NCBI GenBank assembly: GCA_002699145.1
Contig: PABK01000036.1
Location: forward strand, 13,598 to 77,597
DNA length: 64,000 nt
From: Halioglobus sp.
GTDB taxonomy: Bacteria; Pseudomonadota; Gammaproteobacteria; Pseudomonadales; Halieaceae
Direction of reading: 5' to 3'
The notes beneath the pieces are model-generated. The model searched no databases. It was not told the origin of the DNA and worked only from the letters and a program-made list of their open reading frames with translations. Within the stretch, counting starts at the first letter, position 1. The number at the start of each line of letters is the position of its first letter. This document shows, piece by piece, positions 14,171-51,592 of the stretch. A program made the position numbers and the translations under genes.

Positions 14171-14210
14171 TATTAGGTGGCCCACGGCGATGGCCAGCCT
14201 CCGGCCGAAG

Positions 14211-14219
14211 TGCTACTTT
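14211..14219 (+). promoter_or_regulatory. Possible extended -10 promoter (TGnTACTTT) of the TonB receptor gene
   Basis: TGCTACTTT about 115 nt upstream of ATG 14335. Confidence 0.35.
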
Positions 14220-14334
14220 TTCAAGGGTTGGCGCCTCCCAGCTTCACCCCGTGGCCGTTAAAAAAACACAACGAGGTGTCGCATTAAGCGGCCAGCCGTA
14301 CCTACGAATAACGACGACCCGCAGAGGATCCGCC

Positions 14335-16851: not shown

Positions 16852-16874
16852 GCGCCGCCGCAAGCCACTGTTGC

Positions 16875-16898
16875 AGCCGGCCCTGTGCCGGCTTTTTT
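16875..16898 (+). terminator. Rho-independent terminator after the TonB receptor
   Basis: AGCCGGC-CCTGT-GCCGGCT hairpin followed by a T tract. Confidence 0.8.
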
Positions 16899-16931
16899 CT
16901 GCGCGGGTAATGGTTGTGGCGACGACCAGGG

Positions 16932-17096
16932 CGCATTCTCTTGCGGGCGCGTGCCGCGCAGGCCCCTCGCTACGCGACCCGCGGCCCTCCGGGCTGCCCT
17001 CGGTCGGTCGCGAGCCCTGCGGTCTCGCTCCACTCCCTCGGCGCGGCCCAAAGCGTCCGCAAGGGGCCTGCGCGGCACGCACCCGCGGACAGTGCG
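16932..17096. repeat. ~165-bp inverted-repeat element (MITE- or REP-like)
   Basis: Arms 16943-16967 and 17062-17086 are 24/25 complementary; internal hairpins; lies between convergent genes. Confidence 0.65.
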
Positions 17097-17135
17097 TGGT
17101 ATCAGGGCATTGCAGCCTGGATTAAGCCAACTGGA

Positions 17136-17792
17136 TCAGTCCTGGACGGACAGGCCCTCGGGGCAGGCGACGCCGGTGCCGCCGAGGCCGCAGTAGCCGC
17201 CGGGGTTCCTGGCCAGGTACTGCTGGTGGTAGTCCTCGGCGAAGTAGAACGGCGGTGCGGGCAGTATCTCGGTGGTGATGGCGCCGAAGCCGGCGGCGTC
17301 CAGGGAGGCCTGGAAGGCCTCGCGCGAGCTCGCCGCGAGGGCGGCCTGCTCGTCGTCATAGGTATAGATACCCGAGCGGTACTGGGTGCCGACGTCATTG
17401 CCCTGGCGCAGGCCCTGGGTCGGGTCGTGGCCCTCCCAGAACACCCGCAACAATTGCGCGTAGCTGACCACGGCCGGGTCGAAGATCACGCGGACCACCT
17501 CGTTGTGCCCCGTGCGCCCGCTGCACACCTCGCGATAGGTCGGGTTGGGGGTGAAACCCGCGGCGTAGCCGGCGGCGGTGGTGAACACGCCCGGCAACTG
17601 CCAGAACATGCGCTCCACGCCCCAGAAGCAGCCCATGCCGAACATGGCCTGGGCCAGGTGATCGGCGAAGGGCCCCTGCATGGGGTTGCCGTTGACGAAA
17701 TGGGTGGCCGCCACCGGCATGGACTCGTCCCTGCCGGGCAGGGCCTCGTCGGCGGTCGGCATGCTTACAGCGGTTTTGCGCAACAGGCTCAT
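17136..17792 (-). CDS. msrA: Peptide-methionine (S)-S-oxide reductase
   Basis: [57 protein letters not shown]; true start ATG 17792 inside a longer shadow ORF. Confidence 0.97.
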
Positions 17793-17849
17793 GGGCTGCA
17801 AGTATAGCGCCGATTGGGCTACAGTAGCATCCCGATCAAGGAGGGACCC

Positions 17850-19853: not shown

Positions 19854-19981
19854 GCTGTCTGAATACAGGGAACGCGGTAAAACGCCCACGCGGTTCATAC
19901 ACCTGTCATGAAGCGCTTTTACCCTGCTCCGGAACAAAAAATCACTGGAAAGCCATCGGCCCCGGAGAACGGGCCGGCAGG

Positions 19982-20191
19982 ATGAATCGAACAACGAATA
20001 CTATGAATACCGTCAAAATCAACGCCAGCGAACTGTGCAGCCGCAAACTGTGGCAGCTCATCAATGCCAGCGCCGCGGAGCGCATCAGCGAAACCGAACT
20101 GAGCGAGGTCGTCGAGGAACTGGCCAGGCGCCGCCACTACCTGGAGGATTTGCAGGAATTGGGTAAACTGGGGGACCATCGCGACAACTGA
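19982..20191 (+). CDS. Small hypothetical protein
   Basis: Helical gene-like sequence (CSRKLWQL...ELARRRHYLEDL); alternative start ATG 20003; directly precedes the VWA gene. Confidence 0.6.
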   Translation: MNRTTNTMNTVKINASELCSRKLWQLINASAAERISETELSEVVEELARRRHYLEDLQELGKLGDHRDN

Positions 20192-20210
20192 GGGCGCGCC
20201 CCGCAACGCC

Positions 20211-20897
20211 ATGCCCAAACCTCCCTCGCGCCGGTCCTCCTCCTCGGAGATCGCGCGGTTCCTGCACAAGAGCAAGGCCATCTCACAATTCGTCGAGCGG
20301 CAGCCGCGACTGCTGTTCGCCGTCGACGCCACCGCCAGCCGCCAGCCCACCTGGGATACCGCCAGCCATATCCAGCAGGAGATGTTCCGCGCCACCGCGA
20401 AGGTCGCGCAACTGTCGGTCCAGCTGTGCTACTACCGCGGCTTCCACGATTTCAGCGCCAGCCCCTGGCTGGACGACAGCGCGCGCTTGCGCCAGCTGAT
20501 GGGGGCGGTGCGCTGCGAGGGCGGGCACACCCAGATCGCCCGCCTGCTGCGCCACGCCCTGGCCGAGCACGGCGCGGCGCCGGTGCGCGCGGTGGTGTTT
20601 ATCGGTGACGCGCTGGAGGAAAATCCCGACACCCTGTGCGACCTCGCCGGGCAGTGCGGCATCCTGCGCCTGCCGCTGTTCCTGTTCCAGGAGGGCGACG
20701 AGCGCCGCGTGCGCGACACCTTCGAGCAGATGGCGCGCCTGTCCGGCGGCGCCTGGGCGCGCTTCGACAGCCGCAGCGCCGACACGCTCGCCGCCCTGCT
20801 GGGCGCCGTGGCCTGTTACGCCGCGGGCGGCCGGGCCGCCCTGGAAAACAATGCCAGCGAGGGTGCTAAACTGCTGCTGCGTCAACTGCCCAACTAG
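20211..20897 (+). CDS. VWA-domain protein
   Basis: MIDAS-like LFAVDATASR, GGHTQI, VVFIGDALEE. Confidence 0.85.
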   Translation: MPKPPSRRSSSSEIARFLHKSKAISQFVERQPRLLFAVDATASRQPTWDTASHIQQEMFRATAKVAQLSVQLCYYRGFHDFSASPWLDDSARLRQLMGAVRCEGGHTQIARLLRHALAEHGAAPVRAVVFIGDALEENPDTLCDLAGQCGILRLPLFLFQEGDERRVRDTFEQMARLSGGAWARFDSRSADTLAALLGAVACYAAGGRAALENNASEGAKLLLRQLPN

Positions 20898-23020: not shown

Positions 23021-24361
23021 TCAGGGCGCGGCCAACAGGTTGTCCAGTTCCCCGGGGTCCGCCACCAGGTCATAGCTCGCCCGGTCGCCGGGCCCCGCCG
23101 CCGACAGGTCGTAGTCGATCGTCTTGATGCCGCCCTGCACCGTGGCGCGCCCGCCCTCCAGGTAGATTTCCACGGCGCGGTCCGCGCTGGCCTCGCGCAG
23201 CGGCAGGCCCTCGAAGCCCGCGAACGGCGGCAGCCCCGCGAGGTCCAGCACCGTGGGCGCCAGGTCCAGCAGGCTCACCGGGTGCGTGACATCTGCAACC
23301 GGGTAGGCGGGATTGCCCGGCGCACTCACCAGCAGGGGCACCCTGACCGCGGGTTCCCAGAACGTGCTCTTCTGCCAGTGGAATTTTTCGCCCAGGTGAA
23401 AACCGTGGTCCGACCACAGGATGATGTCGGTGTTGGCCGCGTGCGCGCTCTCGGCCAGCGCCGCCAGCACCTGGCCGAGCATCGCGTCGGTGTGGGTGAG
23501 CGCCGCCAGGTAGGCGCGGGTGTACGCCGCCGCCATGCCCGCCCGGTCAACCGCCTCGTACTGTGGGGCCAGGCCGTAAAGCAGGGGTTTCATGGCGAGC
23601 GTCACCGCCTGCGCCGGCTCGTCATCCAGGTCGCCGGCGGGCGGGCGGTGCACCCTGACCTCCTCCCCGCGGTAGAGGTCGTAGGCCCACTGGGGCACCC
23701 GCCAGGGCAGGTGCGGCTGGTAAAAGCCCACGGCGAGAAAAAACGGCCGCGCCGCGTCGTAGCGCTGGAGAAATCCACGCGCCCAGGACGCGACGACCTG
23801 GTCCGGGTGGGCCGCACCCGGCGCCAGCACCCCATGGTTGATATTGGTACCGTCCGGTCCCGGCCCACTGGCGTCGGGCAGCCTGCTGATAATGACCGCC
23901 GGACCCTGCTCGTCCCAGCGTGCAGGCTCGGGACTGTGGAACACCTTGCCGCTGCCGGCCGTGTAGTAACCCTGCCGCGCGAGCACCTCGGGCAGGGAGA
24001 CGGTTGCAGGATCGCGGTAGATCTCGCGGTAACGGCCGTCAAGGATCGCCATGCGGTCGACGCGGTGCGTGGCCGGGCTCTGCCCAAGCAGCACCGTGGT
24101 GCGCGAACCGGCGCATAACGGTACCGCGGCGTAGGCGTTCAGGTAGCGCGTGGAGCGGGCCGCCAGGGCGTCGATATTGGGTGTGTGCAACGTGCCGGGG
24201 TAGTCGCCGGCATAGCCGGTCCAGTTGCGCAAATCGTCGATGGCGATAAACAGGATATTGCGCTGCGCCCCGGGTGCCGCCGCCTGTGCGCCGGCCTGGG
24301 CGCAGAGCAGCAGGCAGAAAAGAAAGAGCAGGCTGTAGGGGAAATGGTGCCGAAGCAGAAC
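23021..24361 (-). CDS. Exported sulfatase-family hydrolase (iduronate-2-sulfatase-like); start codon apparently non-canonical
   Basis: NILFIAIDDLR, CAGSR, GYYTAGSGKVFH, QPHLPW, SDHG, EKFHWQK; the frame extends upstream of the ORF-track TTG (24232) through a signal peptide to GTT/CTG behind GGGAGG. Confidence 0.85.
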   Translation of the reverse strand, partial: VLLRHHFPYSLLFLFCLLLCAQAGAQAAAPGAQRNILFIAIDDLRNWTGYAGDYPGTLHTPNIDALAARSTRYLNAYAAVPLCAGSRTTVLLGQSPATHRVDRMAILDGRYREIYRDPATVSLPEVLARQGYYTAGSGKVFHSPEPARWDEQGPAVIISRLPDASGPGPDGTNINHGVLAPGAAHPDQVVASWARGFLQRYDAARPFFLAVGFYQPHLPWRVPQWAYDLYRGEEVRVHRPPAGDLDDEPAQAVTLAMKPLLYGLAPQYEAVDRAGMAAAYTRAYLAALTHTDAMLGQVLAALAESAHAANTDIILWSDHGFHLGEKFHWQKSTFWEPAVRVPLLVSAPGNPAYPVADVTHPVSLLDLAPTVLDLAGLPPFAGFEGLPLREASADRAVEIYLEGGRATVQGGIKTIDYDLSAAGPGDRASYDLVADPGELDNLLAAP

Positions 24362-24388
24362 GTTTTCCCTCCCTGGAAAGTCCTCGTA

Positions 24389-25099
24389 TTACAATGCCTT
24401 GAACAGGTACTCGCTCATCGGGATGACGTCGATACGCGCCAGGTCGATAAAGCGCTCGCAGCTCTGGAACATCGCGGTGGCGTGCTCACGCAGGACTTCG
24501 TCGTCGCCGCCGCTGGCGTAGAAAGCGTGGTCGTCCTGCATCGCCTCGGGCGGAAAGTTCTCCTCGACGATCGCGTGACAGGGGCGCGTATCCTCACCCA
24601 GGGCGCGCACCACCAGGTTCTGACGATAGCCGAAGGTCGACTGCGTGTCGATGGCGACACGCGTGTGGCTATCCTTCCACAGCGCCAGCCACTGCTCCCG
24701 TTCCAGACCCGCGGGCGGATCCATGAACACCACGTGGCACATGCCGTACACGCGCTCGCCGGGGGCGCTGGGGTGGGCCTGCTGGTTTACCAGCGGCTCG
24801 GCCTCCGCCACCAGGTAACAGGTCCGGCGGCTGACCGCCGCGTCGATGGCAGGCTCCCAGCGCGCACAGTCACCGGCGCTGTCCACCCACAGGGACAGCA
24901 CGGCGTCCGGCAGCGGCGGGTTGTTCTCCATGCGCCGGCCCGCGGCGGGCTCGACGGCGCTGTCGGCCACGCACAGGCGCAGGCCGTGGATGTCGTCGCG
25001 CGCGGCCAGTTGCGGGCAGAGACCGGCCAGCAGGGCATCGCGAAAGGCGTCCACCTGCTGCGCGGCGGGTCGCCAGAGTGGGTACAGCAGTTTTTCCAT
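24389..25099 (-). CDS. EthD-like dimeric alpha-beta barrel protein
   Basis: Two-repeat architecture, WKDSHTRVAIDTQSTFGYRQNLVVR, IVEENFP. Confidence 0.75.
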   Translation of the reverse strand: MEKLLYPLWRPAAQQVDAFRDALLAGLCPQLAARDDIHGLRLCVADSAVEPAAGRRMENNPPLPDAVLSLWVDSAGDCARWEPAIDAAVSRRTCYLVAEAEPLVNQQAHPSAPGERVYGMCHVVFMDPPAGLEREQWLALWKDSHTRVAIDTQSTFGYRQNLVVRALGEDTRPCHAIVEENFPPEAMQDDHAFYASGGDDEVLREHATAMFQSCERFIDLARIDVIPMSEYLFKAL

Positions 25100-27936: not shown

Positions 27937-30465
27937 TCAGGAGACGGCGCCCAGGCTGGGTCGCGCCACCGAGGAATCCATCTCCCAGTTGCGCATGGCG
28001 TAGGCCATCACGCCCATGGGCTTGCCCAGGTCAACGCGACAGACCTCGTTGGGATCCTTCACGGTAAGGGTGGCCGGGCCGAATTCGGAGAGACTGGGCA
28101 CGTGCTTTTCCCAGTCGCCCTTGTGGCCCCCTTCCCTGGCGGCAAAGATCAGGTTCTGCCACGCCGCGAAGTCGTGTTCGAGTTGCAGCACTTCCGGGAA
28201 GCGCCGCGCCGGGGCAGGCAGGTGCGCCAGTTGCACGGCCAGCGTGGTGCGCAGCGCGGAGTCGTCGGCGATGGACAGCTTGTCCACCAGGAAACGTCGC
28301 ACCTCGTTGATGAACAGGCCCCAGGAGCCGGGCGGCGCCATGTTCTGCTCGAGCGTCTTCAGCGTGGTGGCGACAAACGGCCAGTTCTCCGGGTCGCGCA
28401 GCGCCTCGCGACGCAGCGCGTCGTAGAAGGCGACCTCGCCCATGCCGGTCACACTGCGCACGAAACGGCCGACGTAACGCAGTACCCCCCAGTTGTCGAA
28501 CAGGTTGAAGGCGACGCGCAATTCGTTCATGTCGTCCCACTCCTGCCGCGTGTAGCTGGCGGTTTCCTGGACGATGTCACCGGGGCGCGCAACGATGCCG
28601 TACTTTTTCCGGTACTCCGGATCGTTCATGGGGCTGTTGGTGAGCAACAGCGTGGGGTTGGCGCGTACACGCACGTCGCGGTCGGTACATTCCTGCAGGT
28701 CGTTGAAGAAACTGCGCGGCGTCGAACCCGGCAGCCCCATCATGATATCGGCCGCCAGTGGCAGGTGCGCCTGGCGGAACTCGGTGGTCAGGTCGTTGTA
28801 CTTGTCCAGCTTGATGTTGGAGCGATCGATGACCTTCAGGGTGGTCTCGTCCATGGACTGCAGCGATACCACACCCTCGGTCAGGATCTCCACGTCGGCG
28901 AGGATCTCGATGATCTTGCGCAGGTGCTTGACATTGTTCTTGGCGTAGTTGGTGGCGACCGTCTTGGGATAGCCGTAGGTGCGCTTCATCTCGGCGATTT
29001 TCTCGGCGATGGAGACATCGCGCTCGAGCATGCCGAAGTTCGCGTCGGCGAAGGACGCCGTCTGGATCTTGTTCTTCGCACACCACTCGATCTCCGCGAA
29101 CACGCGGTCGATATCGAAGCGGCGCACCCGCGACAGGGTCGCCGAGCCCCAGTCGCAGAAGGTACAACCGAAGGGACAGCCGCGGTTCGACTCGAGGATC
29201 GCCCCGGCCCGACTGGCGCCGAAGGGATCGAACATGCCGGTGAGATACGGCGAGGGAATAGTGTTGAGATCGGCAATGCGGTCGCGGTTGCCGGTGCGCA
29301 CCACACCCTGGCCACTGCGGTAGATGACGCCCTCGACATCCCGCAGCCGCTCCAGGTCGCCCAGGTTGTCCGGGTCCAGGGCCTTGAGCACTTCCGCGAA
29401 AGTGAGTTCGCCCTCACCCTTCACGGTGATATCGACATGGGGATTGTCGGCGAAGAACTCGTCGGAGTCCCTGTCGTATTTCGGTGTGCTCGGCCCGCCG
29501 TGAATGGTGATGCTGGCGGGGCTGACGGCCTTGATGGCGGCGGACAGCCGGAGGTTCTCCTCCACCGTCCACAGGTAGTTGGAAAAGAGGAATATACCGG
29601 GGCGTGCAGCGCGCTCGATGAGTCGCGCCTCGTCCGCCAGGAACAGCGGTACGAAACTGTACTTGTCCAGCAGTGCGCCACCTTCGTATTCCATGGCGTA
29701 GGCCATGACAAAGCCCAGCCCTGCAGGAGTGGTGTTGGCGCTGACGTTGACCGGCACGACCTCGGTGCGTTTGGCGTCGCCCTGCTGCTCGTCGTGCTCG
29801 GCAACCCGCTCGTCGACACTCGCCTGTACCATGGCGCGCCGGTCGTACGGGTCAACCACCGGCGTCTCGGCGACATCCTCGCGGTACGCCTCGGGCGGCG
29901 CGGGCAGCAGTGCCCCGGCGCCGACCAGGCGCGACAGCAGCGCATCGAAGGCATCGCGCGCAAGGCGCTCGCCGGGGATATTCTCGACATAGCGCGCCCA
30001 GGCCTCGTCGGCGGTCGCCGGCCTGCAGAACTGCACGGCGGCATGCGTCTCGGCGAGGCTGAGCACGGCCAGCAGTTCACCACCGTGGCTGTACCACAGG
30101 TAGTGGCCTGCGCTGGCCATCACGCTGGTGGGCGTGGGCAGGTACAGGGCCTCGTCACCCACCTGCGCCGCACTGGTTGGCGGCGCGTCCACCGGCTGCG
30201 GCGCGGCGCCGCTACACAGGTAACCCGCGGCCTCGAGCCCCTCGATAAAGCGCATGACCCGGTTGTGCGGCGCATCGAAGCGGGCGCTGATAGCCTCGGC
30301 CAGCTCCGCGTTGCTGCCGCTGTAGCCGGCGCAGAACTCATCGATGATCGCCAGTCGCTCGGGCAACGGCCGCCTGATGTGCTTGGGCAACTGCGGCAGG
30401 CTGACCTTGCCGTGTGCCGCCAGGGTCAGGAGAAATCCAGGAATGAGGTATCGGGTGGCCGTCAT
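27937..30465 (-). CDS. Cobalamin-binding (class B) radical SAM protein with ~200-aa N-terminal extension
   Basis: FSNYLW...IHGGPS...ITVKGEGE B12-binding domain, ESNRGCPFGCTFCDWG CxxxCxxC, ADANFG, SLQSMD, MMGLPG; SD AAGGA. Confidence 0.92.
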   Translation of the reverse strand: MTATRYLIPGFLLTLAAHGKVSLPQLPKHIRRPLPERLAIIDEFCAGYSGSNAELAEAISARFDAPHNRVMRFIEGLEAAGYLCSGAAPQPVDAPPTSAAQVGDEALYLPTPTSVMASAGHYLWYSHGGELLAVLSLAETHAAVQFCRPATADEAWARYVENIPGERLARDAFDALLSRLVGAGALLPAPPEAYREDVAETPVVDPYDRRAMVQASVDERVAEHDEQQGDAKRTEVVPVNVSANTTPAGLGFVMAYAMEYEGGALLDKYSFVPLFLADEARLIERAARPGIFLFSNYLWTVEENLRLSAAIKAVSPASITIHGGPSTPKYDRDSDEFFADNPHVDITVKGEGELTFAEVLKALDPDNLGDLERLRDVEGVIYRSGQGVVRTGNRDRIADLNTIPSPYLTGMFDPFGASRAGAILESNRGCPFGCTFCDWGSATLSRVRRFDIDRVFAEIEWCAKNKIQTASFADANFGMLERDVSIAEKIAEMKRTYGYPKTVATNYAKNNVKHLRKIIEILADVEILTEGVVSLQSMDETTLKVIDRSNIKLDKYNDLTTEFRQAHLPLAADIMMGLPGSTPRSFFNDLQECTDRDVRVRANPTLLLTNSPMNDPEYRKKYGIVARPGDIVQETASYTRQEWDDMNELRVAFNLFDNWGVLRYVGRFVRSVTGMGEVAFYDALRREALRDPENWPFVATTLKTLEQNMAPPGSWGLFINEVRRFLVDKLSIADDSALRTTLAVQLAHLPAPARRFPEVLQLEHDFAAWQNLIFAAREGGHKGDWEKHVPSLSEFGPATLTVKDPNEVCRVDLGKPMGVMAYAMRNWEMDSSVARPSLGAVS

Positions 30466-30850
30466 GGTCGGGTTCCTTGGGCCGCGGTTGCCAGGGCGCG
30501 CGCCACCGGCCCGTCGGCCGCTGCGGTCGCCGCGTACTCTGCCGCTGCGCTAAAAATTATGCTCATATCAATACCGGAGATGCCGGGCAATGGCAAATGG
30601 ACGGCTCGCAATTATAAGCACCTTTCTTATCCATCGGGTATCTCGTTCGCGCCGCGCTGCGCCACGGCGCAACCCGGGCGCGGGGTCCCGTGGCGCTCCA
30701 GTATAAAAGAATGCCGTTGAAAAGCAGCAACCTGTCCTGTGATGGGTTGCACAGTTTGGGGGGATTTGGCCGCGCCGGCAAAGACCACCAAACCAGTGCG
30801 GTTACTGCTGCGTTACCGGCGCCGCGCCGGTGCGGCACGGGCTCACCTGC

Positions 30851-32479
30851 CTATTGCGGCGGCGGGTCGGGCAGGCACAGCAGGAAAGACTCGGTATCGC
30901 CGGCCAGGCCCAGGCGCACCTCCAGCGCATCTACCTGGACGCGAAACAGCCCACCGGAGCTGGGGTGACGCATCTGCGGACGGCCCACGGGTTTGCCGTT
31001 GCGCAACAGGCGCAGCGTGAACGACTGGTTGGCGAACCAGCCCGGCTTGGGCCTGGTCCACGGCCCCTCGGCGACGCCGAATTCATCGCCGCGGCGCAGG
31101 GACAGGTCCAGCGGTTCGCGGATGACACTGCAGTTGTCGTAGGGATTGTCCGCGCGCAGTTGCGCGAGGCCGAACAACAACGGGTCCAGGGGGTTGGCGC
31201 GCGGCTCCAGCGGCGGCAGCGTACCCTCCGCGCGCCGCTGCAGAATCCAGCCGATAGGCACGTTGAGCTGCAGCGGGTCGGGCCGCGTCTCGGGCGGCAC
31301 ACGCTGCGCGTACGGGGAATACGCCAGGGAAACGAAATTCTGCTGGCGCTTGTGAAAATAATTCTCGTGGAACAGCGCCTGCTTGCCAAACCTGTCCACG
31401 TTCGGCGGGATTGCGGCGATGATCAGCAGCACCGCCAGCCACACCGCCGCACGCCAGTTGCGCGTCAGCGCGTCGACGGCGACACCCAGCGCGGGCAGGG
31501 TCATGGCGGCGCCCAGGTGCAGGTAGCGACTCTGCGTCGCCGCCTCCTCACCCAGCCACCAGCGGCCGTAGCCGGTTACCGCCAGGAATACCAGGCCGGC
31601 GCCGAACAAGCCCAGGGGCATAGCGGCGTCGCGCGCGAACGCCAGCGGGGAGCGGCCCGCGCAGGCCACCACCAGGCCCGCCGGCAACACCAGGGCGTAG
31701 AGCGCGGCCAGCCACTGGTGCGGCGCCAGGCTGGTGAACACCCCGGAGTAACCGGTGACCACGAAATGCAGCACCTCGGCCACACCCGCCTCGCGACCAT
31801 AGGGGTCGCTGATGGTCGCCGGTCCCACCGCCAGCCACCAGCCGAGGAAGACAACAGCCAGCGGCACGGTGTGGAACAGCGCCACCTTGAGCCCGCGGCG
31901 CAGCAGCGTCACCGCCCCGGTCACGGCGACGAGCACCGGGGCAAAACCGGCGCTGAGTATCGCCACCAGGCCCAACAGCAGGCCGAGCACGTCGCGCCGC
32001 GACAGGCCGCCCGGGTGATTGGCCAGCAGCAATTGCGCCAGCCCCATGGCCAGCGCGCCGGTAAACCCCACCTGGAAGGCCCAGATGATGTTCTCCTCGC
32101 CCGGCCCGAAGTACACGAACACCGCGGCGAGCGCTGTGGCAATCCACGCATTCACCTGGCTCCGGCGCATGATCAGCCACAGCAGCACGGCCGTCAGCAG
32201 GTGCATGCACAACACGGGCACCTGGTAGGGCGTGTAGCTGCCGAAGCCGACGCTGTGAAAAAGCAGGCGGTAGATGAGGATAGGGACGGTCGCCACATGC
32301 TCGTTGTGCGGCGCAAACAGGCTGCCGCTCATGCGCTGCGTGAGGAATACCCACTCGTCGCCATGAAACCAGTAGAAATCTCCCAGCCGCAGGAGAATGA
32401 TGAAAAATGCGCTCGCGACCAGCAGGGCGAGAACCAGTGCGGGTGCGCTGGCGCGCGGCAGTGAGGTCAGGTCGTTCAA
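30851..32479 (-). CDS. Polytopic membrane protein, probable GT-C-fold glycosyltransferase
   Basis: First TM followed by a loop with WFHGDEW acidic pair, many further hydrophobic segments, SRY near the end of the TM region, soluble C-terminal domain; TTG start. Confidence 0.6.
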   Translation of the reverse strand: MNDLTSLPRASAPALVLALLVASAFFIILLRLGDFYWFHGDEWVFLTQRMSGSLFAPHNEHVATVPILIYRLLFHSVGFGSYTPYQVPVLCMHLLTAVLLWLIMRRSQVNAWIATALAAVFVYFGPGEENIIWAFQVGFTGALAMGLAQLLLANHPGGLSRRDVLGLLLGLVAILSAGFAPVLVAVTGAVTLLRRGLKVALFHTVPLAVVFLGWWLAVGPATISDPYGREAGVAEVLHFVVTGYSGVFTSLAPHQWLAALYALVLPAGLVVACAGRSPLAFARDAAMPLGLFGAGLVFLAVTGYGRWWLGEEAATQSRYLHLGAAMTLPALGVAVDALTRNWRAAVWLAVLLIIAAIPPNVDRFGKQALFHENYFHKRQQNFVSLAYSPYAQRVPPETRPDPLQLNVPIGWILQRRAEGTLPPLEPRANPLDPLLFGLAQLRADNPYDNCSVIREPLDLSLRRGDEFGVAEGPWTRPKPGWFANQSFTLRLLRNGKPVGRPQMRHPSSGGLFRVQVDALEVRLGLAGDTESFLLCLPDPPPQ

Positions 32480-32552
32480 GGCAAGCGCAGGCGATCAGGT
32501 ATCTCGGGGGTACGGCTGATTATGCGTTCCCGCGTCCGCCAATGCCAGGTCT

Positions 32553-33929
32553 TCAACAGCCGGGGGCATTGATGTCGATAAGGTTCACCAGCTCCGCCGG
32601 GTCAGCCGTCAGGTCATAGGACTCGCGATCGGCAAGGCCAGGCTGGCTGAGGTCGTAATCGACGCTCTTCATGCCGTCGCTGCCCACCGTGGCCCGGCCG
32701 CCGTTCAGGTAGATGACCGCGGGGCTGCGCTGGTTCGCATCGTGCAGCGGCCCGCCCTCAAACTGGCTGTAGGCCGGCAAACCCGCCAGGTCCAGCACGG
32801 TTGGCGCGAGATCCACCAGGCTGACCGCTGCGCTCACATCACCCACCGGGTAATCGGGATTACCCGGTGCACTGACCAGCAGGGGCACCTTCACCGCCTG
32901 CTCCCAGAACGTCAACTTGCGCCAGTGGAACTTCTCCCCCAGGTGGAAGCCGTGGTCCGACCACAGGATCACATCGGTATGCGCCGCGTAGGGGCTGGCG
33001 GCCAGGGCGGCGAGCACCTGCCCGACCATGTCGTCGGTGTGCGAGATGGCCGCGAGGTAGGCGCGGGTGTAGTCCTGCGCCTTGCCGGCAGCCTCCACCG
33101 CCTCGTAGGTGGTCACCCCATTGAAGACCAGCGGCTGGGCCGCGTACTGCCGGCCCTTGACCGGCACATCGTCGAGATCGCCCGGGACGGGGACATGCGC
33201 GGCGACCTGCTGCAGGGGGTAGAGGTCGTAATAGGACTGGTGCACCCGCCACGGCAGGTGCGGCTGGTAGAAGCCGACGGCGAGGAAAAACGGCATGCCG
33301 TTGATGCCCGGTTGCGACGCCGCATAATCGGCGAGGAAATCACTGGCCCAGTCGGCGACCACCTGGTCCGGGTGCTGCTCCTCCTCGTCCAGCACCTGGG
33401 GATTGATAAAGGTGTTGTCCGGCCCGGGGTCGAAGGCGTTGTAGAATTCCGAGTAGGTGATGGGCGGCCCGGAACTGTCCCAGCGCGCGGGCAGGGGCGT
33501 ATTGAACACCTTGCCCGTGACGGCGGTGTAGTAGCCGCCGTCGGCCATGACCTCGGGCAGGGAAATCATACCCGGGTCAGCGTAAATCGCATCGTAGTCC
33601 GGATCACCGGGACCGAAGGAGACGCGATCGAGACCGTGAGTCGCCGGGGTCTGACCAAACATTACCGAGGTGCGCGCCGCCACGCACTGGGGCATGGACG
33701 TGTAGGCGCTGAGGTAGCGGGTGGACACCGCCGCCAGGGCGTCGATGTTCGGGGTGTGCACGGTGCCGGGGTAATCCCCCGCATAGCCCACCCAGTTGCG
33801 CAGGTCGTCGATCGCGATGAAGACGATATTGCGTGTGGGAACCTGTGCGCCGGCAAAGGGCGCACAGCCTAGCGCCAGCAGGAACACAAAAAGGCGCAGC
33901 AATCCCCTGGAATCCCGGTTGATCAACAT
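32553..33929 (-). CDS. Exported sulfatase-family hydrolase, paralogue of 23021-24361
   Basis: Signal peptide, NIVFIAIDDLRNW, CVAAR, GYYTAVTGKVFN, QPHLPW, SDHG, EKFHWRK. Confidence 0.9.
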   Translation of the reverse strand: MLINRDSRGLLRLFVFLLALGCAPFAGAQVPTRNIVFIAIDDLRNWVGYAGDYPGTVHTPNIDALAAVSTRYLSAYTSMPQCVAARTSVMFGQTPATHGLDRVSFGPGDPDYDAIYADPGMISLPEVMADGGYYTAVTGKVFNTPLPARWDSSGPPITYSEFYNAFDPGPDNTFINPQVLDEEEQHPDQVVADWASDFLADYAASQPGINGMPFFLAVGFYQPHLPWRVHQSYYDLYPLQQVAAHVPVPGDLDDVPVKGRQYAAQPLVFNGVTTYEAVEAAGKAQDYTRAYLAAISHTDDMVGQVLAALAASPYAAHTDVILWSDHGFHLGEKFHWRKLTFWEQAVKVPLLVSAPGNPDYPVGDVSAAVSLVDLAPTVLDLAGLPAYSQFEGGPLHDANQRSPAVIYLNGGRATVGSDGMKSVDYDLSQPGLADRESYDLTADPAELVNLIDINAPGC

Positions 33930-34370
33930 GGTCAGAGCCCTCGCAGGTAGACGGGCGGCCCGGCGGGTCAGCGGTCTGCAGTTTCCGTGGAGGCGTCCGC
34001 GCCAGCATGGGCGGCGGTCGCGTAATCCTTTGCAGGTCGCGCGTCAAGGGCGCAATACTTACATGAAAAATGCGCTCGGGGAAACGGTTTTGCGCAGACT
34101 GTGAACGCGACGGCATTTTGTCATAATCTGTCGGAATGTCTTAATCGACAACCGATAATCAAACGGTATTTCAAGCGGCGATTACGCCACGGCGGCGCAC
34201 AGGTACACGGCACTCGCCGAGCGGGAGAAAGCACAACCTGGATCACAGTTTCACCACCTGCGGTACGCGGCCAGTTTATAGGGGTCGGCATAATCCTTTA
34301 AGATGAGCCGGTGACAACAGCAGGCGATGCCCCGGCCGCGCTTCCGACAATAACGAAGACACATACACAT

Positions 34371-35294
34371 ATGAAAATAGTCATCACCGGCGGCGCGGGG
34401 CTGGTCGGTCAGAACCTGTTGATCAGACTGCTCGCCCGCGGCTTCGACGATGTCCACGTACTGGACAAGGCGGCGCACAACCTGGCGCTCGCCAGCAAGA
34501 CGCACCCCGGCGCGAATTTCCTGCAGACAGACCTGTCCCGGCGCGGCCCCTGGGAAAACATCGTGGCGGCGGCGGACGTGGTCGTCATGCTGCACGCACA
34601 GATCGGCGGCAATGTGCGCGCCGAATTCCACAACAACAACGTCGTGGCCACCCAGAACGTGTTGCGCGTGATGTCACCCGACGCGTCCCTGGTGCACGTC
34701 AGCTCCTCCGTGCTGGAGTCCTCGGCGACCGATGACTACAAACTGACCAAGGAGCGGCAGGAGGAACTGGTCACCTCCTGCGGTCGCCCCTACACGGTAC
34801 TGCGACCGACGCTCATGTTCGGCTGGTTCGACCGCAAGCACTTCGGCTGGCTGGCGCGTTTCATGTCAAAGACGCCGATCTTCCCCATTCCCGGTAACGG
34901 CAAGTACGTGCGCCAGCCACTGTACGCGGGGGATTTTTGCGACATTATCCTGGCCTGCATCAGCGGCGGACCACGCAATACCGCGTACAACATCTCCGGC
35001 AAGGAAAAAATTACCTACGTCGACATCATACGCGCGATCCGGCGCGTGCAGGGCAGCCGCTCGCTGCTGCTGCACCTGCCCTACGGCGTGTTCTACGCGC
35101 TGCTGTGGTGCTACGCGCTGTTCGACAGGAACCCCCCGTTCACCACCGCCCAGTTGCAGGCCCTCGTCCTGGACGAGGTGTTCGAGGACATGGACTGGGA
35201 GGGCGAATTCGATGTCGAGGCGACACCGTTCGAGACGGCGATAAGCGATACCTTCACCCATCCCGAGTACAGCAAGCTGAGGCTGGAATTCTGA
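34371..35294 (+). CDS. NAD-dependent epimerase/dehydratase (extended SDR)
   Basis: ITGGAGLVG, HVSSS, YKLTK (YxxxK), LRPTLMFG; start ATG 34371. Confidence 0.9.
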   Translation: MKIVITGGAGLVGQNLLIRLLARGFDDVHVLDKAAHNLALASKTHPGANFLQTDLSRRGPWENIVAAADVVVMLHAQIGGNVRAEFHNNNVVATQNVLRVMSPDASLVHVSSSVLESSATDDYKLTKERQEELVTSCGRPYTVLRPTLMFGWFDRKHFGWLARFMSKTPIFPIPGNGKYVRQPLYAGDFCDIILACISGGPRNTAYNISGKEKITYVDIIRAIRRVQGSRSLLLHLPYGVFYALLWCYALFDRNPPFTTAQLQALVLDEVFEDMDWEGEFDVEATPFETAISDTFTHPEYSKLRLEF

Positions 35295-35295
35295 C

Positions 35296-36579
35296 ATGGC
35301 GACGATAGCAGTCATCGGGGGCGGACCGATGGGCCTGGCCGCCGCCTACCAGTTGCTCAAGCTGGGACACGAGGTGGAGTTGTTCGAGGCGGACCGGCAG
35401 CTCGGCGGCATGAGCGCGTCGTTCATGTTCGACGGCATCAAGATAGAGCGCTACTACCACTTTATCTGCAAGGCGGACCAGCCGCTGTTCGACATGCTGC
35501 AGGAACTGGGCATTGCCGACACGCTGCGCTGGACGCCGACGCGCATGGGCTACTACCACAATGGCAGGATGTCAGACTGGGGCGAGCCGCTGGCCCTGCT
35601 GAAGTTTCCCGGCCTGGACCTGCTCAGCAAGATCCGCTACGGACTGCTGGCGTTCACCTCGACCAAACGCAGCAACTGGCGGGGCCTGGACAAGATCGAC
35701 GCGGTGACCTGGCTGCAGCGCTGGGTCGGCAAGCGCGCTTACGACGTGCTCTGGCGACCGCTGTTCGAACTCAAGTTTCACCACTTCACCCCGAACCTGT
35801 CCGCCGCGTGGATATGGTCCCGACTGAAACGGGTCGGCACCTCACGCAGCAGCATTTTCCAGGAGGAACTGGGTTACCTCGCGGGCGGGTCGGACACCTT
35901 CCTGGATTCCATCGCCGCGCATATCGTGGACATGGGCGGCAAGATCCACCTGGACAGGAAGGTAGAGGAGGTCCTGTGCCGCGACGGCGCGGTGCAAGGC
36001 GTGGTGACGGGCGCGGGCATCCAGCACTTCGACCGGGTCGTCAGCACGATTCCCATGCCCTATGTCGCGGACATGGTGCCCGCACTGCCAACGACGGTGC
36101 GGGACGCCTACGACTCGGTCAACAACATCGCCGTGGTCTGTGTGCTGGCCCACCTGGATCGACCGCTCAGCCCCTATTTCTGGCTCAATATCAGCGATCC
36201 GGACATCGATATCCCGGGAGTGATCGAGTATACCAACCTCAATCCCGTCGGCGACCATATCGTCTACGCGCCCTTTTATATCCCCGGTGACCACCCGGAC
36301 TACCAGCGCGACGACGCGTTCTTCATCGACAAGGTGCGCCGCTATATCCGCGCGATCCAGCCGCAGATGCCTGACAGCGCCATCCTGAAGATCGCTGCCG
36401 GCAGGTACCGTTACGCACAGCCCATCTGCGAGCCACAGTTCCCGGCGAGACTGCCGGCGATCAACCCCGGGGTGGAGGGGCTATACATTGCCGACACCTG
36501 CTTTTACTATCCCGAGGACCGTTCGATCTCCGAGAGCATCAGGCTGGGACGGGAACTGGCGCGCATGGCATCGACCTGA
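35296..36579 (+). CDS. FAD-dependent oxidoreductase (protoporphyrinogen/amine oxidase-like family)
   Basis: VIGGGPMGLAAAY, EADRQLGG, IERYYHF, YAQP, YYPEDRSISES. Confidence 0.88.
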   Translation: MATIAVIGGGPMGLAAAYQLLKLGHEVELFEADRQLGGMSASFMFDGIKIERYYHFICKADQPLFDMLQELGIADTLRWTPTRMGYYHNGRMSDWGEPLALLKFPGLDLLSKIRYGLLAFTSTKRSNWRGLDKIDAVTWLQRWVGKRAYDVLWRPLFELKFHHFTPNLSAAWIWSRLKRVGTSRSSIFQEELGYLAGGSDTFLDSIAAHIVDMGGKIHLDRKVEEVLCRDGAVQGVVTGAGIQHFDRVVSTIPMPYVADMVPALPTTVRDAYDSVNNIAVVCVLAHLDRPLSPYFWLNISDPDIDIPGVIEYTNLNPVGDHIVYAPFYIPGDHPDYQRDDAFFIDKVRRYIRAIQPQMPDSAILKIAAGRYRYAQPICEPQFPARLPAINPGVEGLYIADTCFYYPEDRSISESIRLGRELARMAST

Positions 36580-36637
36580 AGGGCACGGCGACAGCGCGCG
36601 CCACAGCGACGCAACAGCGCAATGAGTTGAGAATAAT

Positions 36638-38083
36638 ATGAATGACAGCGCATCACAGGTTGCACCCGCGAAGATCCCGCTCTGCGTCGATCTCGACGGC
36701 ACGCTGGTGCACAGTGATACGCTGGTCGAGTCCATACTCATGCTGGTCAAGCGTAACCCCTTGAACCTGATCGCCCTGCTCTACTGGTTGCTCAACGACC
36801 GCGCCCGCTTCAAGGAAAAGGTGGCGGCCCGTGTGCGTCCGGATGTCGACGCCCTGCCCTATAACCAGGTGTTCGTCGACTGGCTGCGCGGGCAGCGCCA
36901 GGAAGGCCGCGAGCTGGTGCTGGTGACCGCGGCGAACTACCGCATCGCGCAGGACGTTGCGCAACACCTGCAGTTGTTCGATGAGGTCATCGCCAGCAGC
37001 GCCTCGCACAACCTGAAAGCGGCCGACAAGCGCGACGAACTGCTGCAACGTTACGGCGCCGGCGGCTACGACTACGCCGGCAACAGCGAGGCCGACCTGC
37101 CGGTCTGGTCGACCTGTCGCCGGACGATCCTGGTCAACACACCGGCCAGGGTCGCCGACCGGGCGCGTGCCGGCGGCGAGATCGAGCGCAATTTTCCCGG
37201 CCACGGCAACCCCGTCAAGGCACTGTTGCGCGCGATGCGCCCGCACCAGTGGGTGAAAAACCTGTTGCTGTTCGTCAATATCATCCTCGCCCACCAGTAT
37301 TTCAACGCGACGCTGCTGGGCGAAACCGTACTCGCGTTCGTGGCGTTCTGCATCTGCTCTTCCAGCGTCTACCTGACCAACGACCTGATGGACCTGCAGG
37401 TCGACCGGCGTAACTCGGAAAAGAAACACAGGCCGTTCGCCAGCGGCCAGGCCTCGTTACAGGCCGGCATCATCGCCATACCATTGCTGCTACTGCTGGC
37501 TTTTACCCTGGCTGCATGCGTATCGCCGCTGTTTTTCGCCGTGCTGCTGTCCTATTTCGCCACCACGCTGGCCTACTCTTTTTACCTGAAGAAACACGTA
37601 CTGTTCGATGTACTCACACTGGCCGGGCTGTATACCATCCGTATCATCGCCGGCGCGTCGGTGGCGCAGCAGTTCCCCTCCGTCTGGCTGATCTCGTTTT
37701 CCATGTTCGTTTTCACCAGCCTGGCGATGGCCAAGCGTTATGCGGAGCTGAGAATGCTCGAGGCCGAGTCCGGCAGCTGGATTGGTGGTCGCGGCTACCA
37801 CGTCAATGACCTCGCCGTCATTTCCCAACTCGGCGCCGCGTCGGGCTATCTTTCCACGCTGGTACTGGCGCTGTACATCGACAGCCCGGAAGTGGCCGAG
37901 CTGTACAGCTACCCCCTGGCCCTGTGGTTGCTCTGCCCCATGCTGATGTACTGGATCGGCAGGATCTGGCTGGTGGCGAACCGCGGCGAATTGCGCCAGG
38001 ACCCGGTGATCTACGCCACCCAGGACCTGGTGAGCTACATCGCGGTGTTCGCGGGCGGGGCGATTCTGTGGCTGGCGCGCTGA
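36638..38083 (+). CDS. HAD-phosphatase/UbiA-family polyprenyl-phosphate phosphoribosyltransferase fusion
   Basis: N-terminal HAD motifs CVDLDGTL, LVTAA, GNSEAD; C-terminal MRPHQWVKN, NDLMD...KKHRPFASG, KRYAEL, DPVIYA. Confidence 0.9.
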   Translation: MNDSASQVAPAKIPLCVDLDGTLVHSDTLVESILMLVKRNPLNLIALLYWLLNDRARFKEKVAARVRPDVDALPYNQVFVDWLRGQRQEGRELVLVTAANYRIAQDVAQHLQLFDEVIASSASHNLKAADKRDELLQRYGAGGYDYAGNSEADLPVWSTCRRTILVNTPARVADRARAGGEIERNFPGHGNPVKALLRAMRPHQWVKNLLLFVNIILAHQYFNATLLGETVLAFVAFCICSSSVYLTNDLMDLQVDRRNSEKKHRPFASGQASLQAGIIAIPLLLLLAFTLAACVSPLFFAVLLSYFATTLAYSFYLKKHVLFDVLTLAGLYTIRIIAGASVAQQFPSVWLISFSMFVFTSLAMAKRYAELRMLEAESGSWIGGRGYHVNDLAVISQLGAASGYLSTLVLALYIDSPEVAELYSYPLALWLLCPMLMYWIGRIWLVANRGELRQDPVIYATQDLVSYIAVFAGGAILWLAR

Positions 38084-39390
38084 GCGCGCGCAGCTGGGGA
38101 CGGCTGCCCCTGGCCGCCGCGGCAACCACGGTGGCGGCGGACTGGCGCTTCCAGGCGCTACCCGGCCGCGACGAGGTCACCACCCTGCTCGCCCACGGCG
38201 CCCGGCGCAGCTACGGCGACAGTTGCATCAACAGCGGCGGTACAGAGCTGGACACGCGCCAGCTGGACCGTTTCATCGCACTCGACAGCAACGCCGGCAC
38301 GCTGCGCTGTGACGCGGGCGTCACCTTGCAGGAAATCCTGCGGCTGGTGGTACCGCGTGGCTGGTTCCTGCCGGTGCTGCCGGGCACGCAGTTCGTGACC
38401 GTCGGCGGGGCCATCGCCAACGACATACACGGCAAGAATCACCACGTCAGCGGCTCCTTTGGCTGCCACGTCGATGCGCTGACCCTGTTGCGCAGCGACG
38501 GCGAGCGCCGCGTGTGTAGCGAGAGCGACAACGCCGGGCTGTTCGCCGCCACCATCGGCGGCCTGGGCCTGACCGGCCTGATCACCGAGGCCACCCTCAG
38601 GCTGCGTCCCATCGCCTGCGACAGGCTGGTCGTCGAGAACCTGGTATTCAATTCGGCGCAGGAGTTCAGCCAACTCAGCGGCGAATCGATGGACTGGGAA
38701 TACACCGTGTCCTGGGTCGATGTCTTCGCTCGCGCCGGACGCGCCGGACGCGGCATCTTTTCCCGCGCCCGGCATGTCGACGAGCCCGGCGAGCTGACCG
38801 CGGGAGGCGGGCGCATGCGCATGTCACTGCCTTTCGCCCCGCCCCTGCCGCTGGTCAACAGCACGACAGTAGACCTTTTCAACCGCGCCTATTTCCTGCG
38901 CGGAAGCCGGGGCCTGGGAGTACGCGAACAACACTTCCAGCCGTTCTTCTTTCCACTGGACGCCATCGCCCACTGGAACAGGCTCTACGGTCGGCAGGGG
39001 TTCTACCAGTACCAGTGCGTGATTCCCAGGGACGGCGGGGTGGCGATACTGGAGAGTCTGCTGCGGCGTATCGCCGACAGTCGGGAGGCGTCGTTCCTCG
39101 CCGTGCTCAAGGAGTTCGGCGAACGCCGTTCACCCGGCCTGCTGTCCTTTCCCAGGCCGGGCTTCACCCTGGCGCTGGACTTTCCCAACCGCGGCGCGAA
39201 AACCCTCACGCTGTTCCAGTCGCTGGACGATATCGTCATGTCGGCGGGCGGCGCGCTCTACCCCGCCAAGGACGCGCGCATGTCGGCGCAAACCTTCGCG
39301 CGCAGTTTTCCCGGCAGCGAGGTCTTCAGCCAGTACGTGGACCCGCGGTTTTGCTCGAATTTCTGGCGCCGCGTCAGGACAGGCCTATGA
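38068..39390 (+). CDS. DprE1-like FAD-binding oxidase (polyprenyl-P-ribofuranose 2'-oxidase)
   Basis: SWGR, GARRSYGD, PGTQFVTVGGAIANDIHGKNHH, SFLAVLKEFG, PGFTLALDF, LYPAKD align with M. tuberculosis DprE1; start is GTG 38068 or CTG 38080 (uncertain). Confidence 0.88.
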   Translation: MAGALSARSWGRLPLAAAATTVAADWRFQALPGRDEVTTLLAHGARRSYGDSCINSGGTELDTRQLDRFIALDSNAGTLRCDAGVTLQEILRLVVPRGWFLPVLPGTQFVTVGGAIANDIHGKNHHVSGSFGCHVDALTLLRSDGERRVCSESDNAGLFAATIGGLGLTGLITEATLRLRPIACDRLVVENLVFNSAQEFSQLSGESMDWEYTVSWVDVFARAGRAGRGIFSRARHVDEPGELTAGGGRMRMSLPFAPPLPLVNSTTVDLFNRAYFLRGSRGLGVREQHFQPFFFPLDAIAHWNRLYGRQGFYQYQCVIPRDGGVAILESLLRRIADSREASFLAVLKEFGERRSPGLLSFPRPGFTLALDFPNRGAKTLTLFQSLDDIVMSAGGALYPAKDARMSAQTFARSFPGSEVFSQYVDPRFCSNFWRRVRTGL

Positions 39391-40127
39391 AGCAGAACAT
39401 TGTCGTCTTCGGCGCCACCTCGGCCATTTGTACGGCGCTGCTGCGACTGTACGCCAAGGAGGGCGCCAGCCTCTTCCTCGCCGCGCGCAACAATGAAAAG
39501 CTCGCCGCGCTGGGCGAGGACCTCGTCGTGCGCGGCGCCACCGTCGCCGGCATGCGCGCCTACGACTTCAATGACTGGCCACAACACGAGGGATGCCTGG
39601 AGGAGGCGGCGACAGCCCTGGGGGAAGTCGACCTGGTTATCGTCGCCCACGGCAGCCTGCCACAGCAGGCCGACTGCGACGCCTCCGGCGAGGTCACCTG
39701 GAACACGCTGCAGGACAACTTCAGCAGCACTGCGATCATACTGCAGCAGAGCGCGCGGCTGCTTGCGGCACAGGGTCGCGGCACGCTCGCCGCGTTCACC
39801 TCGGTGGCCGGGGATCGCGGCCGCAAGAGCAACTACACCTACGGGTCGACCAAGGCCGGCCTGGACGCCATGCTCGAGGGCTTGCGCGGCCGCTTCTACG
39901 GCAGCCCCGTCGCGGTCGTGACCATCAAGCCCGGCATGATCGTCTCGCCGATGACCGCGGACATGGAGCACGGCCCGCTGTGGTCCACACCGGAGGCCAT
40001 CGCCCCGACCATCAAGACGGCGATCTCGCGCGGTCGCGCGCTGTGTTACGCGCCGGGGTACTGGCGCCTCATCATGTGGGTGATCCGCGCCCTGCCCCTG
40101 GCGGTACTGGCGCGCCTGCCCATCTAG
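39387..40127 (+). CDS. DprE2-like SDR reductase
   Basis: FGATSAI, SVAGDRGRKSNYTYGSTKAG, IKPGMIVSPMT; ATGA overlap with the DprE1-like gene. Confidence 0.88.
   Translation: MKQNIVVFGATSAICTALLRLYAKEGASLFLAARNNEKLAALGEDLVVRGATVAGMRAYDFNDWPQHEGCLEEAATALGEVDLVIVAHGSLPQQADCDASGEVTWNTLQDNFSSTAIILQQSARLLAAQGRGTLAAFTSVAGDRGRKSNYTYGSTKAGLDAMLEGLRGRFYGSPVAVVTIKPGMIVSPMTADMEHGPLWSTPEAIAPTIKTAISRGRALCYAPGYWRLIMWVIRALPLAVLARLPI

Positions 40128-48109: not shown

Positions 48110-51592
<3,483 letters not shown>

Follow-up and report, generated by a model that had tools for sequence, protein, structure and literature searches.

Three-component pentofuranose systems combine a lipid-linked pentofuranose donor made from phosphoribosyl pyrophosphate (PRPP), a flippase and a GT-C glycosyltransferase (Kelly et al. 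2024, PMC11127046). In the Citrobacter youngae O1/O2 prototype these parts are ORF15 (PRP-PPPRS), ORF14 (a MATE protein, the flippase type proposed for this system) and ORF12 (the GT-C enzyme, GT136), with ORF13 as an epimerase. ORF15 was shown biochemically to convert PRPP to polyprenyl-P-ribofuranose, and its HAD D18xD and UbiA NDxxDxxxD positions were mutated in the validated protein. DprE1/E2 are already named there as auxiliary epimerases for arabinofuranose, and D-arabinofuranose glycosylation of Pseudomonas aeruginosa pilin is cited as relying on a PPPRS, DprE1/E2 homologues and the GT-C enzyme TfpW (PMC11127046). Here we analyze a related locus, positions 27937-40127 of a 64,000-nucleotide stretch (the window) that represents contig C52 of a 5.2-Mb Halioglobus genome (G000; GC content ~64.7-64.8%). 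A first-pass annotation of the window had presented the eight genes of this locus as a candidate undescribed surface-modification system, a description overtaken by the 2024 paper, in which the concept of three-component pentofuranose systems with DprE1/E2 was published.

The locus has two divergent blocks. Family scores, motifs and the matches to DPPRS and DprE1 identify the rightward block as a PRPP-dependent polyprenyl-phospho-pentofuranose pathway, as had been proposed. The leftward block encodes a membrane protein with a GT-C fold, a cobalamin-type radical SAM (S-adenosylmethionine) enzyme and a sulfatase. Genes of the GT-C and radical SAM types are strongly linked and occur as a pair mainly in Acidimicrobiia. 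On the homologies, folds, motifs and co-occurrence patterns documented here, our tentative reading, for which we would put the chances slightly short of even, is that the lipid-linked pentofuranose of the operon is used by the GT-C protein encoded beside it. The two juxtaposed modules would then probably act together in the extracytoplasmic decoration of an envelope glycan. Open reading frame (ORF) calls and family profile searches recovered all eight genes at the positions, and in the order and divergent arrangement, first assigned to them:

34371-35294, plus strand: extended short-chain dehydrogenase/reductase (SDR; NAD-dependent epimerase/dehydratase family), 307 amino acids (aa); PF01370, 1.8e-20
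35296-36579, plus strand: FAD flavoprotein of the conserved uncharacterized family PRK07233, 427 aa; NF005560, 523.7 bits against a cut-off of 252
36638-38083, plus strand: HAD-UbiA fusion, 481 aa; NF006088 (PRK08238), 616.5 bits against a cut-off of 351
38068-39390, plus strand: DprE1-like FAD oxidase, 440 aa, GTG start; NF053785, 347 bits against a cut-off of 500
39387-40127, plus strand: DprE2-like classical SDR, 246 aa; NF053786, 169 bits (cut-off 250), and PRK07102, 242 bits (cut-off 267)
30851-32479, minus strand: polytopic membrane protein with a GT-C fold, 542 aa; AlphaFold2 and Foldseek
27937-30465, minus strand: cobalamin-type radical SAM enzyme, 842 aa; Pfam Radical_SAM and a weak B12-binding match
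32553-33929, minus strand: exported type I sulfatase-family enzyme, 458 aa; PF00884, 2e-34
33930-34370: divergent intergenic region, 441 bp, 58% GC
30466-30850: non-coding spacer between the GT-C and radical SAM genes, 385 bp, with no plausible ORF and no Rfam match

The pentofuranose donor operon

The HAD-UbiA fusion joins an N-terminal HAD phosphoribose phosphatase to a C-terminal UbiA-type polyprenyl-phosphate phosphoribosyltransferase. PF12710 covers residues 18-155 of the protein, whose HAD domain contains D18-L-D-G-T, and the UbiA domain has the NDxxDxxxD motif as N248-D-L-M-D-L-Q-V-D. The UbiA domain of the fusion matches Mycobacterium tuberculosis DPPRS (8j8j) at 2.2e-24, and the DprE1-like oxidase matches M. 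tuberculosis DprE1 at 1.1e-70 over 387 residues. The oxidase keeps the equivalent of the catalytic lysine K418 and has alanine in place of C387. The DprE2-like SDR contains Y152xxxK, and its ATG overlaps the stop codon of the DprE1-like gene; the two are translationally coupled. We use the names "DprE1-like" and "DprE2-like" because both proteins score below the NCBIfam equivalog cut-offs.

Upstream, the extended SDR has intact G7xxGxxG and Y123xxxK motifs, and the flavoprotein belongs to the amine oxidase/phytoene desaturase superfamily; both have only remote relatives in the PDB. The SDR was paired with the flavoprotein in every Halieaceae operon examined. The genes are tightly packed: those for the SDR and flavoprotein lie 1 nt apart, the HAD-UbiA and DprE1-like genes overlap by 16 nt, and the DprE1-like and DprE2-like genes by 4 nt. 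From these assignments we infer the identity of the pentose. The DprE1-like oxidase and DprE2-like reductase would invert C2 to yield polyprenyl-P-D-arabinofuranose; a further change to the pentose may come from the tightly coupled SDR and flavoprotein.

We surveyed 200 sampled Halieaceae genomes from 40 genera; the Halioglobus subset, including the genome of the window, numbers 22. HAD-UbiA homologues occurred in 41 of the 200 genomes and in 20 of the 40 genera. A conserved seven-gene form, present in at least two genera, runs SDR, flavoprotein, GtrA, class I methyltransferase, HAD-UbiA, DprE1, DprE2. The window operon is a reduced version of this form that lacks GtrA and the methyltransferase, and family profile searches of the locus proteins found no GtrA or MATE gene within 27937-40127. 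The operons of its relatives include GtrA; the sole GtrA gene of the window's genome lies on contig C3, 59% identical to an operon-borne GtrA of a relative and 3.5 kb from a paralog of the radical SAM gene. The window operon has lost a GtrA flippase and a methyltransferase that its relatives have kept.

Other flippase candidates accompany donor operons elsewhere. In three Halioglobus genomes a MATE transporter gene lies about 2 kb from the operon (L036, 2476-3843; L038, 2589-3959; L054, 15775-17142). A minimal form of the operon in other families of the order has LPG_synthase_TM directly before HAD-UbiA-DprE1-DprE2 (L041, L042 and L043), and this MprF flippase-like protein is a candidate alternative flippase for the lipid-linked pentose.

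The majority of donor operons have no adjoining GT-C gene. In genus g51 (genomes G150 and G160), the operon is flanked by genes for two paralogous polytopic proteins of ~590 aa, 32% identical to each other, with GT2 genes and a KedN5/TokK-type radical SAM gene in the surroundings. These proteins (L049 of G160; L050 of G150, e.g., 2214-4019 and 15742-17505) carry HPHxPWRD and EPHYxAHR motifs. They belong to no Pfam or NCBIfam family, have no homologue in the genome of the window, and gave no significant hhalign match to the GT-C family described below. They may represent a further unannotated GT-C family. Because two different unannotated polytopic proteins flank the G150/G160 operon, this arrangement suggests that the transferase is swapped cassette-fashion beside the donor operon. 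In two other genomes, G001 and G004, a 500-aa B12 radical SAM gene of another type follows DprE2 (L036, 13291-14814; L038, 13331-14821) and is itself followed by a convergent sigma-54 activator gene. The window's genome has its orthologue of this activator on contig C51, which puts the operon at a different chromosomal site there.

The GT-C protein and the linked radical SAM enzyme

The 542-aa protein has no match in Pfam or NCBIfam, and a profile of 50 homologues found no sequence match in the PDB. An AlphaFold2 model based on the alignment of these 50 homologues was confident (pLDDT 92.2, pTM 0.92), and its significant Foldseek matches were all GT-C enzymes: ArnT and AftB on top, then STT3, AftD, ALG3, AftA and PMT, with a probability of 1.00 for ArnT, AftB and STT3. 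AftB uses polyprenyl-P-arabinofuranose as its donor. The model has ~11 helices, a small helical loop domain after the first transmembrane helix (TM1) and a beta-rich C-terminal periplasmic domain. Across the family W37, F38 and D41 are invariant and immediately follow TM1, while in the C-terminal domain C535 is invariant and C450 nearly so (at least 90%). The invariant aspartate would suit a catalytic acid of the first periplasmic loop, and the C-terminal cysteines an oxidized periplasmic domain. Fold and aspartate together bear out the GT-C-like character first suggested for this protein. Its substrate would be the lipid-linked pentose after flipping, which it would pass on to a periplasmic acceptor, probably bound by the C-terminal beta domain.

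An exhaustive profile search placed 5,518 representatives of 50% clusters in this family at E<=1e-3, overturning an initial impression from a word-indexed search (76 matches) that the family was tiny. We call the family unannotated with reference to Pfam and NCBIfam.

TokK and CysS depend on cobalamin and carry out iterative methylation of unactivated carbons. The core of the window's radical SAM enzyme (approximately residues 235-800) resembles TokK, CysS and KedN5 at ~25% identity, with a cluster motif C430xxxC434xxC437. PDB profile searches matched TokK at 1.9e-90 and CysS at 2.1e-83, and the KedN5 model NF033712 scored 266 bits against a cut-off of 700. Its AlphaFold2 model (pLDDT 81.8) matched TokK in Foldseek with a TM score, normalized to the target, of 0.70; matches of the whole model were dominated by the core. 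Ahead of the core, an N-terminal extension of ~230 residues is predicted as two beta3-alpha3 units, for which we found no sequence match in Pfam, NCBIfam or the PDB. TokK and CysS were crystallized with pantetheinylated small-molecule substrates, according to the titles of their PDB entries. The window enzyme would be cytoplasmic and would most likely methylate an unactivated carbon, perhaps of the lipid-linked sugar or of a different precursor to the same glycoconjugate.

This full-length radical SAM type was present in 14 of the 22 Halioglobus genomes, often in multiple copies. The genome of the window has two further copies on contig C3. There, one radical SAM paralog (56% identical) has the same orientation as a GH106 rhamnosidase gene and overlaps it by 14 nt, and the surrounding region (9403-20367; L044/L045) encodes a sulfatase paralog, a cytochrome-c-fused sugar dehydrogenase, a 472-aa epimerase-family protein and the sole GtrA along with the rhamnosidase.

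Acidimicrobiia and Halioglobus, from two distant phyla, together provided at least 11 distinct loci in which a radical SAM homologue, 42-71% identical over the full length, lay within 10 kb of the GT-C gene; two or three such paralogs often stood in tandem. Four Acidimicrobiia genomes from long reads each had three to seven GT-C paralogs, which were confined with all detected radical SAM copies to a single island of ~50 kb. Genes for PhyH-type oxygenases, FkbM-type methyltransferases, SPASM radical SAM proteins, GT2 enzymes, a carbamoyltransferase and a UDP-glucose dehydrogenase were nearby. The Halioglobus island of genome G113 is more compact: between housekeeping genes it holds only two GT-C and three radical SAM genes. 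A literature search for cobalamin radical SAM enzymes together with GT-C enzymes or polyprenyl sugars found nothing relevant. Families seen around the GT-C genes in Acidimicrobiia (PhyH, FkbM-type and SPASM) also meet in a cluster on contig C23 of the window's genome (35389-43758; L047), which has a PhyH oxygenase, two FkbM-type methyltransferases, a 678-aa sulfatase, two SPASM radical SAM proteins and a sulfotransferase.

The GT-C tree scatters the Halioglobus sequences over at least four positions among those of Actinomycetota, and the window protein is sister to that of a marine Acidimicrobiales metagenome-assembled genome (support 100/99). In the radical SAM tree, the window enzyme falls within a Halioglobus clade, outside the Actinomycetota clade. 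Because the trees differ, the two genes were not simply co-transferred as a unit into this lineage, and their adjacency was either kept or re-created. A broader interpretation, quite unlikely when taken as a whole, would join the GT-C family and the TokK/CysS-like radical SAM enzyme, extended by its two N-terminal domains, in a conserved two-enzyme module that reaches up to seven GT-C and three radical SAM paralogs per island in Acidimicrobiia and was exchanged several times with Halioglobus. Such a module would build or decorate an extracytoplasmic glycan with C-methylated (alkyl-branched) sugars from lipid-linked donors, and here would be plugged into a donor operon for arabinofuranose or a doubly epimerized, lyxofuranose-type sugar.

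Proposed donor use, rival explanations and the rest of the locus

Use of the operon's donor by the neighboring GT-C protein is suggested by co-occurrence within Halioglobus. Only four of the 200 Halieaceae genomes, all Halioglobus, encode this GT-C. Counting these four and the genome of the window, the full donor operon and its HAD-UbiA gene were present in 5/5 GT-C-positive Halioglobus genomes, versus 4/17 GT-C-negative ones (hypergeometric estimate, p ~0.005, for relatives that are not independent). Adjacency of GT-C gene and donor operon was seen in the window and in genome G186 only; the latter has the same divergent layout with an extra 5.6 kb of genes (L028). In genome G015, which lacks this GT-C, the donor operon is directly preceded, on its own strand, by an ortholog of the radical SAM gene and a PhyH gene, and the donor operons of G001/G004 and G150/G160 have other B12 radical SAM genes at their flanks. 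Of the four Acidimicrobiia genomes that encode this GT-C family, three also have adjoining UbiA and DprE1 genes at another site.

As an observation on the G186 locus itself, VapBC and AbiEi/AbiEii toxin-antitoxin genes and aryl sulfotransferase genes are interspersed there (L002/L028; 14688-15277 and 20269-21212), and many genes are split by frameshifts, possibly through assembly errors.

Several findings weigh against this use of the donor. The GT-C/radical SAM module stands apart from donor genes in all Acidimicrobiia loci, where no UbiA, DprE1 or DprE2 gene was found within 10 kb of the GT-C gene, and in the Halioglobus genomes G113, G234 and G006 the two modules occupy separate contigs. 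In one Acidimicrobiia genome, G042, neither a PPPRS nor a DprE1 was detectable despite seven GT-C paralogs. Approximately 37 sampled Halieaceae genomes carry the donor operon without this GT-C, the locus itself lacks a flippase gene, and the GT-C and radical SAM trees give the window different sisters. The nearest radical SAM relatives (64-66% identity) come from genomes with neither the GT-C nor HAD-UbiA, in which they are solitary or sit beside a second B12 radical SAM gene. Small GT2 genes, whose products could make polyprenyl-P-hexose, adjoin the GT-C gene in Actinomycetota loci. GT87 enzymes use polyprenyl-P-mannose, and 3 of 50 GT-C family members matched GT87 (PF09594) weakly (E=0.001), although the window protein itself had no such match. 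The eight genes therefore do not hold together as the single system first proposed, given a donor operon in 41/200 Halieaceae genomes, a GT-C in 4/200 and a pair centered on Acidimicrobiia. Co-occurrence of the left-hand genes with the donor operon, also proposed, held for the GT-C within Halioglobus and failed for the Acidimicrobiia loci, the radical SAM relatives and the sulfatase.

The main rival explanation, unlikely in our judgment yet the strongest of the alternatives, makes the modules independent neighbors. The GT-C/radical SAM pair would be of an Actinomycetota type that uses another lipid-linked donor, such as polyprenyl-P-hexose made by a GT2 enzyme, and the pentofuranose operon would serve a GT-C encoded elsewhere, like TfpW in P. 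aeruginosa. The disparity between donor-operon and GT-C carriers, the missing donor genes around every Acidimicrobiia GT-C, the paralog-rich G042, the GT2 neighbors (in L004 and the JGI locus), the faint GT87 signal and the compact G113 island with GT-C and radical SAM paralogs only are all in keeping with it. It sits less well with the complete co-occurrence in Halioglobus, the juxtaposition kept in G186 and the position of the G015 radical SAM gene immediately ahead of the donor operon, nor is there a candidate polyprenyl-P-hexose synthase beside the window GT-C. Very improbable, in contrast, is action of the radical SAM and GT-C proteins on a protein or peptide, in which the beta3-alpha3 domains would recognize a polypeptide in the manner of a RiPP recognition element (RRE), with methylation in the cytoplasm and glycosylation after export. 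The two predicted beta-beta-beta-alpha-alpha-alpha units would suit such a role, the Actinomycetota partners (B12 radical SAM paralogs, SPASM, PhyH-type and methyltransferase genes) recall heavily tailored peptide pathways, and certain GT-C enzymes (PMT, PglB and TfpW) do glycosylate proteins. However, no conserved small ORF accompanies the pair in the window or in the compact G113 island, the N-terminal domain matches neither PqqD/RRE nor any other family, the crystallographic substrates of TokK and CysS are small molecules rather than peptides, and the GT2, UDP-glucose dehydrogenase and carbamoyltransferase neighbors point to glycan chemistry.

The remaining question in weighing the locus is the sulfatase, which the first-pass annotation had included for possible sulfate or phosphate tailoring. 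Were it an integral tailoring enzyme, it would act in the periplasm on sulfate or phosphate esters of the modified glycan, removing or remodeling them. Its gene precedes the GT-C gene on the same strand at a distance of 73 bp, G186 keeps this order with aryl sulfotransferase genes nearby, a paralog lies near the radical SAM paralog and GtrA on contig C3, and the 678-aa sulfatase-family gene on contig C23 is close to PhyH, FkbM-type, SPASM and sulfotransferase genes. Its distribution tracks neither module. The subfamily occurs in five sampled Halieaceae genomes (G022, G186, G194, G224 and G076), only one of which has the GT-C; it is missing from three of the four other GT-C-positive genomes, and the Acidimicrobiia loci have no such sulfatase, the only match being one of 32% identity in L025. 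The contig C3 copy, with a GH106 rhamnosidase and a sugar dehydrogenase, has a catabolic-looking context, and marine heterotrophs have many catabolic sulfatases. An integral role is therefore improbable, its distribution ruling the sulfatase out as a core component; the enzyme is probably an incidental neighbor with its own, possibly catabolic, function. The preferred reading, donor use by the neighboring GT-C, does not include it.

The sulfatase has a signal-peptide-like N terminus and a maturation motif, C82-V-A-A-R, in which alanine replaces the proline of C-x-P-x-R; arylsulfatase and choline-sulfatase models matched it far below their cut-offs. Three paralogs are encoded elsewhere: at 23021-24388 of the window, on contig C3 and on contig C28. 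The window copy, 61% identical and 8 kb to the left, has no obvious start upstream of its signal peptide and follows an EthD-domain gene (24389-25099). Sulfatases lie recurrently near related genes within this genome, which an incidental role does not explain. Genome G076 was considered as a third case of sulfatase/donor adjacency and dropped, as the genes are 8.6 kb apart with unrelated genes between them.

The radical SAM gene probably has a promoter of its own in the 385-bp spacer that separates it from the GT-C gene; because this non-coding gap splits the two, the leftward block may not be a single transcript. The divergent gap has the size first given (33930-34370), yet its supposed AT-richness is only mild, at 58% GC against a genome mean of 64.8%. 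It contains a single weak sigma-70-like site, on the minus strand, and no terminator was found in it. Neither a cobalamin riboswitch nor a small ORF was found in the 385-bp or the 441-bp gap. Spot counts of GC in the earlier description were exact (33/60 at 37501-37560, 35/60 at 35461-35520, and 42/60 in a dnaE line at 49441-49500), but the hint of foreign origin drawn from them fails. The rightward operon has 64.4% GC overall, the 31st percentile among 4-kb windows of the genome, and third-position GC of the eight genes is 0.84-0.90, around the genome median of 0.857. Because both values are ordinary for this genome, there is no compositional sign of foreign origin, and we rejected that possibility for the operon.

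Comparison with known systems

The donor pathway alone is ordinary, because it adds another example to a class described in 2024. What is new is a GT-C family of ~5,500 cluster representatives with no Pfam or NCBIfam annotation, and its near-obligate linkage in Acidimicrobiia to a clade of class B radical SAM methylases. To our knowledge, this TokK/CysS-type clade has so far been known from antibiotic pathways only. Also new is the recurrence of B12 radical SAM genes beside pentofuranose donor operons in Halieaceae. If these radical SAM enzymes do act on lipid-linked sugars, they would represent a new route to C-alkylated sugars in cell-envelope glycans and would give testable functions to thousands of "hypothetical" membrane proteins of marine and soil bacteria.

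The radical SAM enzyme shares with TokK, ThnK, CysS and KedN5 the core homology and fold, the CxxxCxxC motif and a predicted cobalamin domain. It differs in its low identity to them, in the unique 230-residue double-domain extension, in often occurring as two or three tandem paralogs, and in its genomic context, which consists of GT-C, PhyH and FkbM-type genes instead of an antibiotic gene cluster.

Among the donor systems, the mycobacterial decaprenyl-phospho-arabinose pathway (Rv3806c, Rv3807c, DprE1, DprE2 and Rv3789, with Aft/Emb transferases) resembles the window locus in its DPPRS (2e-24) and in its DprE1 (1e-70, with K418 kept). A DprE2-like SDR is likewise present in the window, and AftB is among the best structural matches of the GT-C protein. 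Unlike the mycobacterial phosphatase, which is a PAP2 enzyme, that of the window is a fused HAD domain; C387 is replaced by alanine, scores stay below the NCBIfam equivalog cut-offs, the host is Gram-negative and the GT-C protein lies outside the Aft/Emb sequence families. The P. aeruginosa pilin system, as cited in PMC11127046, is likewise a proteobacterial polyprenyl-P-arabinofuranose donor operon, and its GT-C may be encoded elsewhere in the genome; the window GT-C has no adjoining pilin gene, and the synthase and phosphatase domains are organized differently.

The C. youngae system has the same HAD-UbiA fusion, with catalytic motifs at nearly the same positions (D18 of the window protein corresponds to D18 of ORF15), auxiliary epimerizing enzymes, and a GT-C with ~11 helices, a helical loop domain after TM1 and a beta-rich C-terminal domain. 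Unlike it, the window locus lacks a flippase and lies outside an O-antigen cluster. Its GT-C falls into no sequence family of Pfam or NCBIfam, and the locus also includes genes for a cobalamin radical SAM enzyme and a sulfatase. In place of the one SDR of C. youngae, it has DprE1/DprE2-type enzymes together with the SDR/flavoprotein pair.

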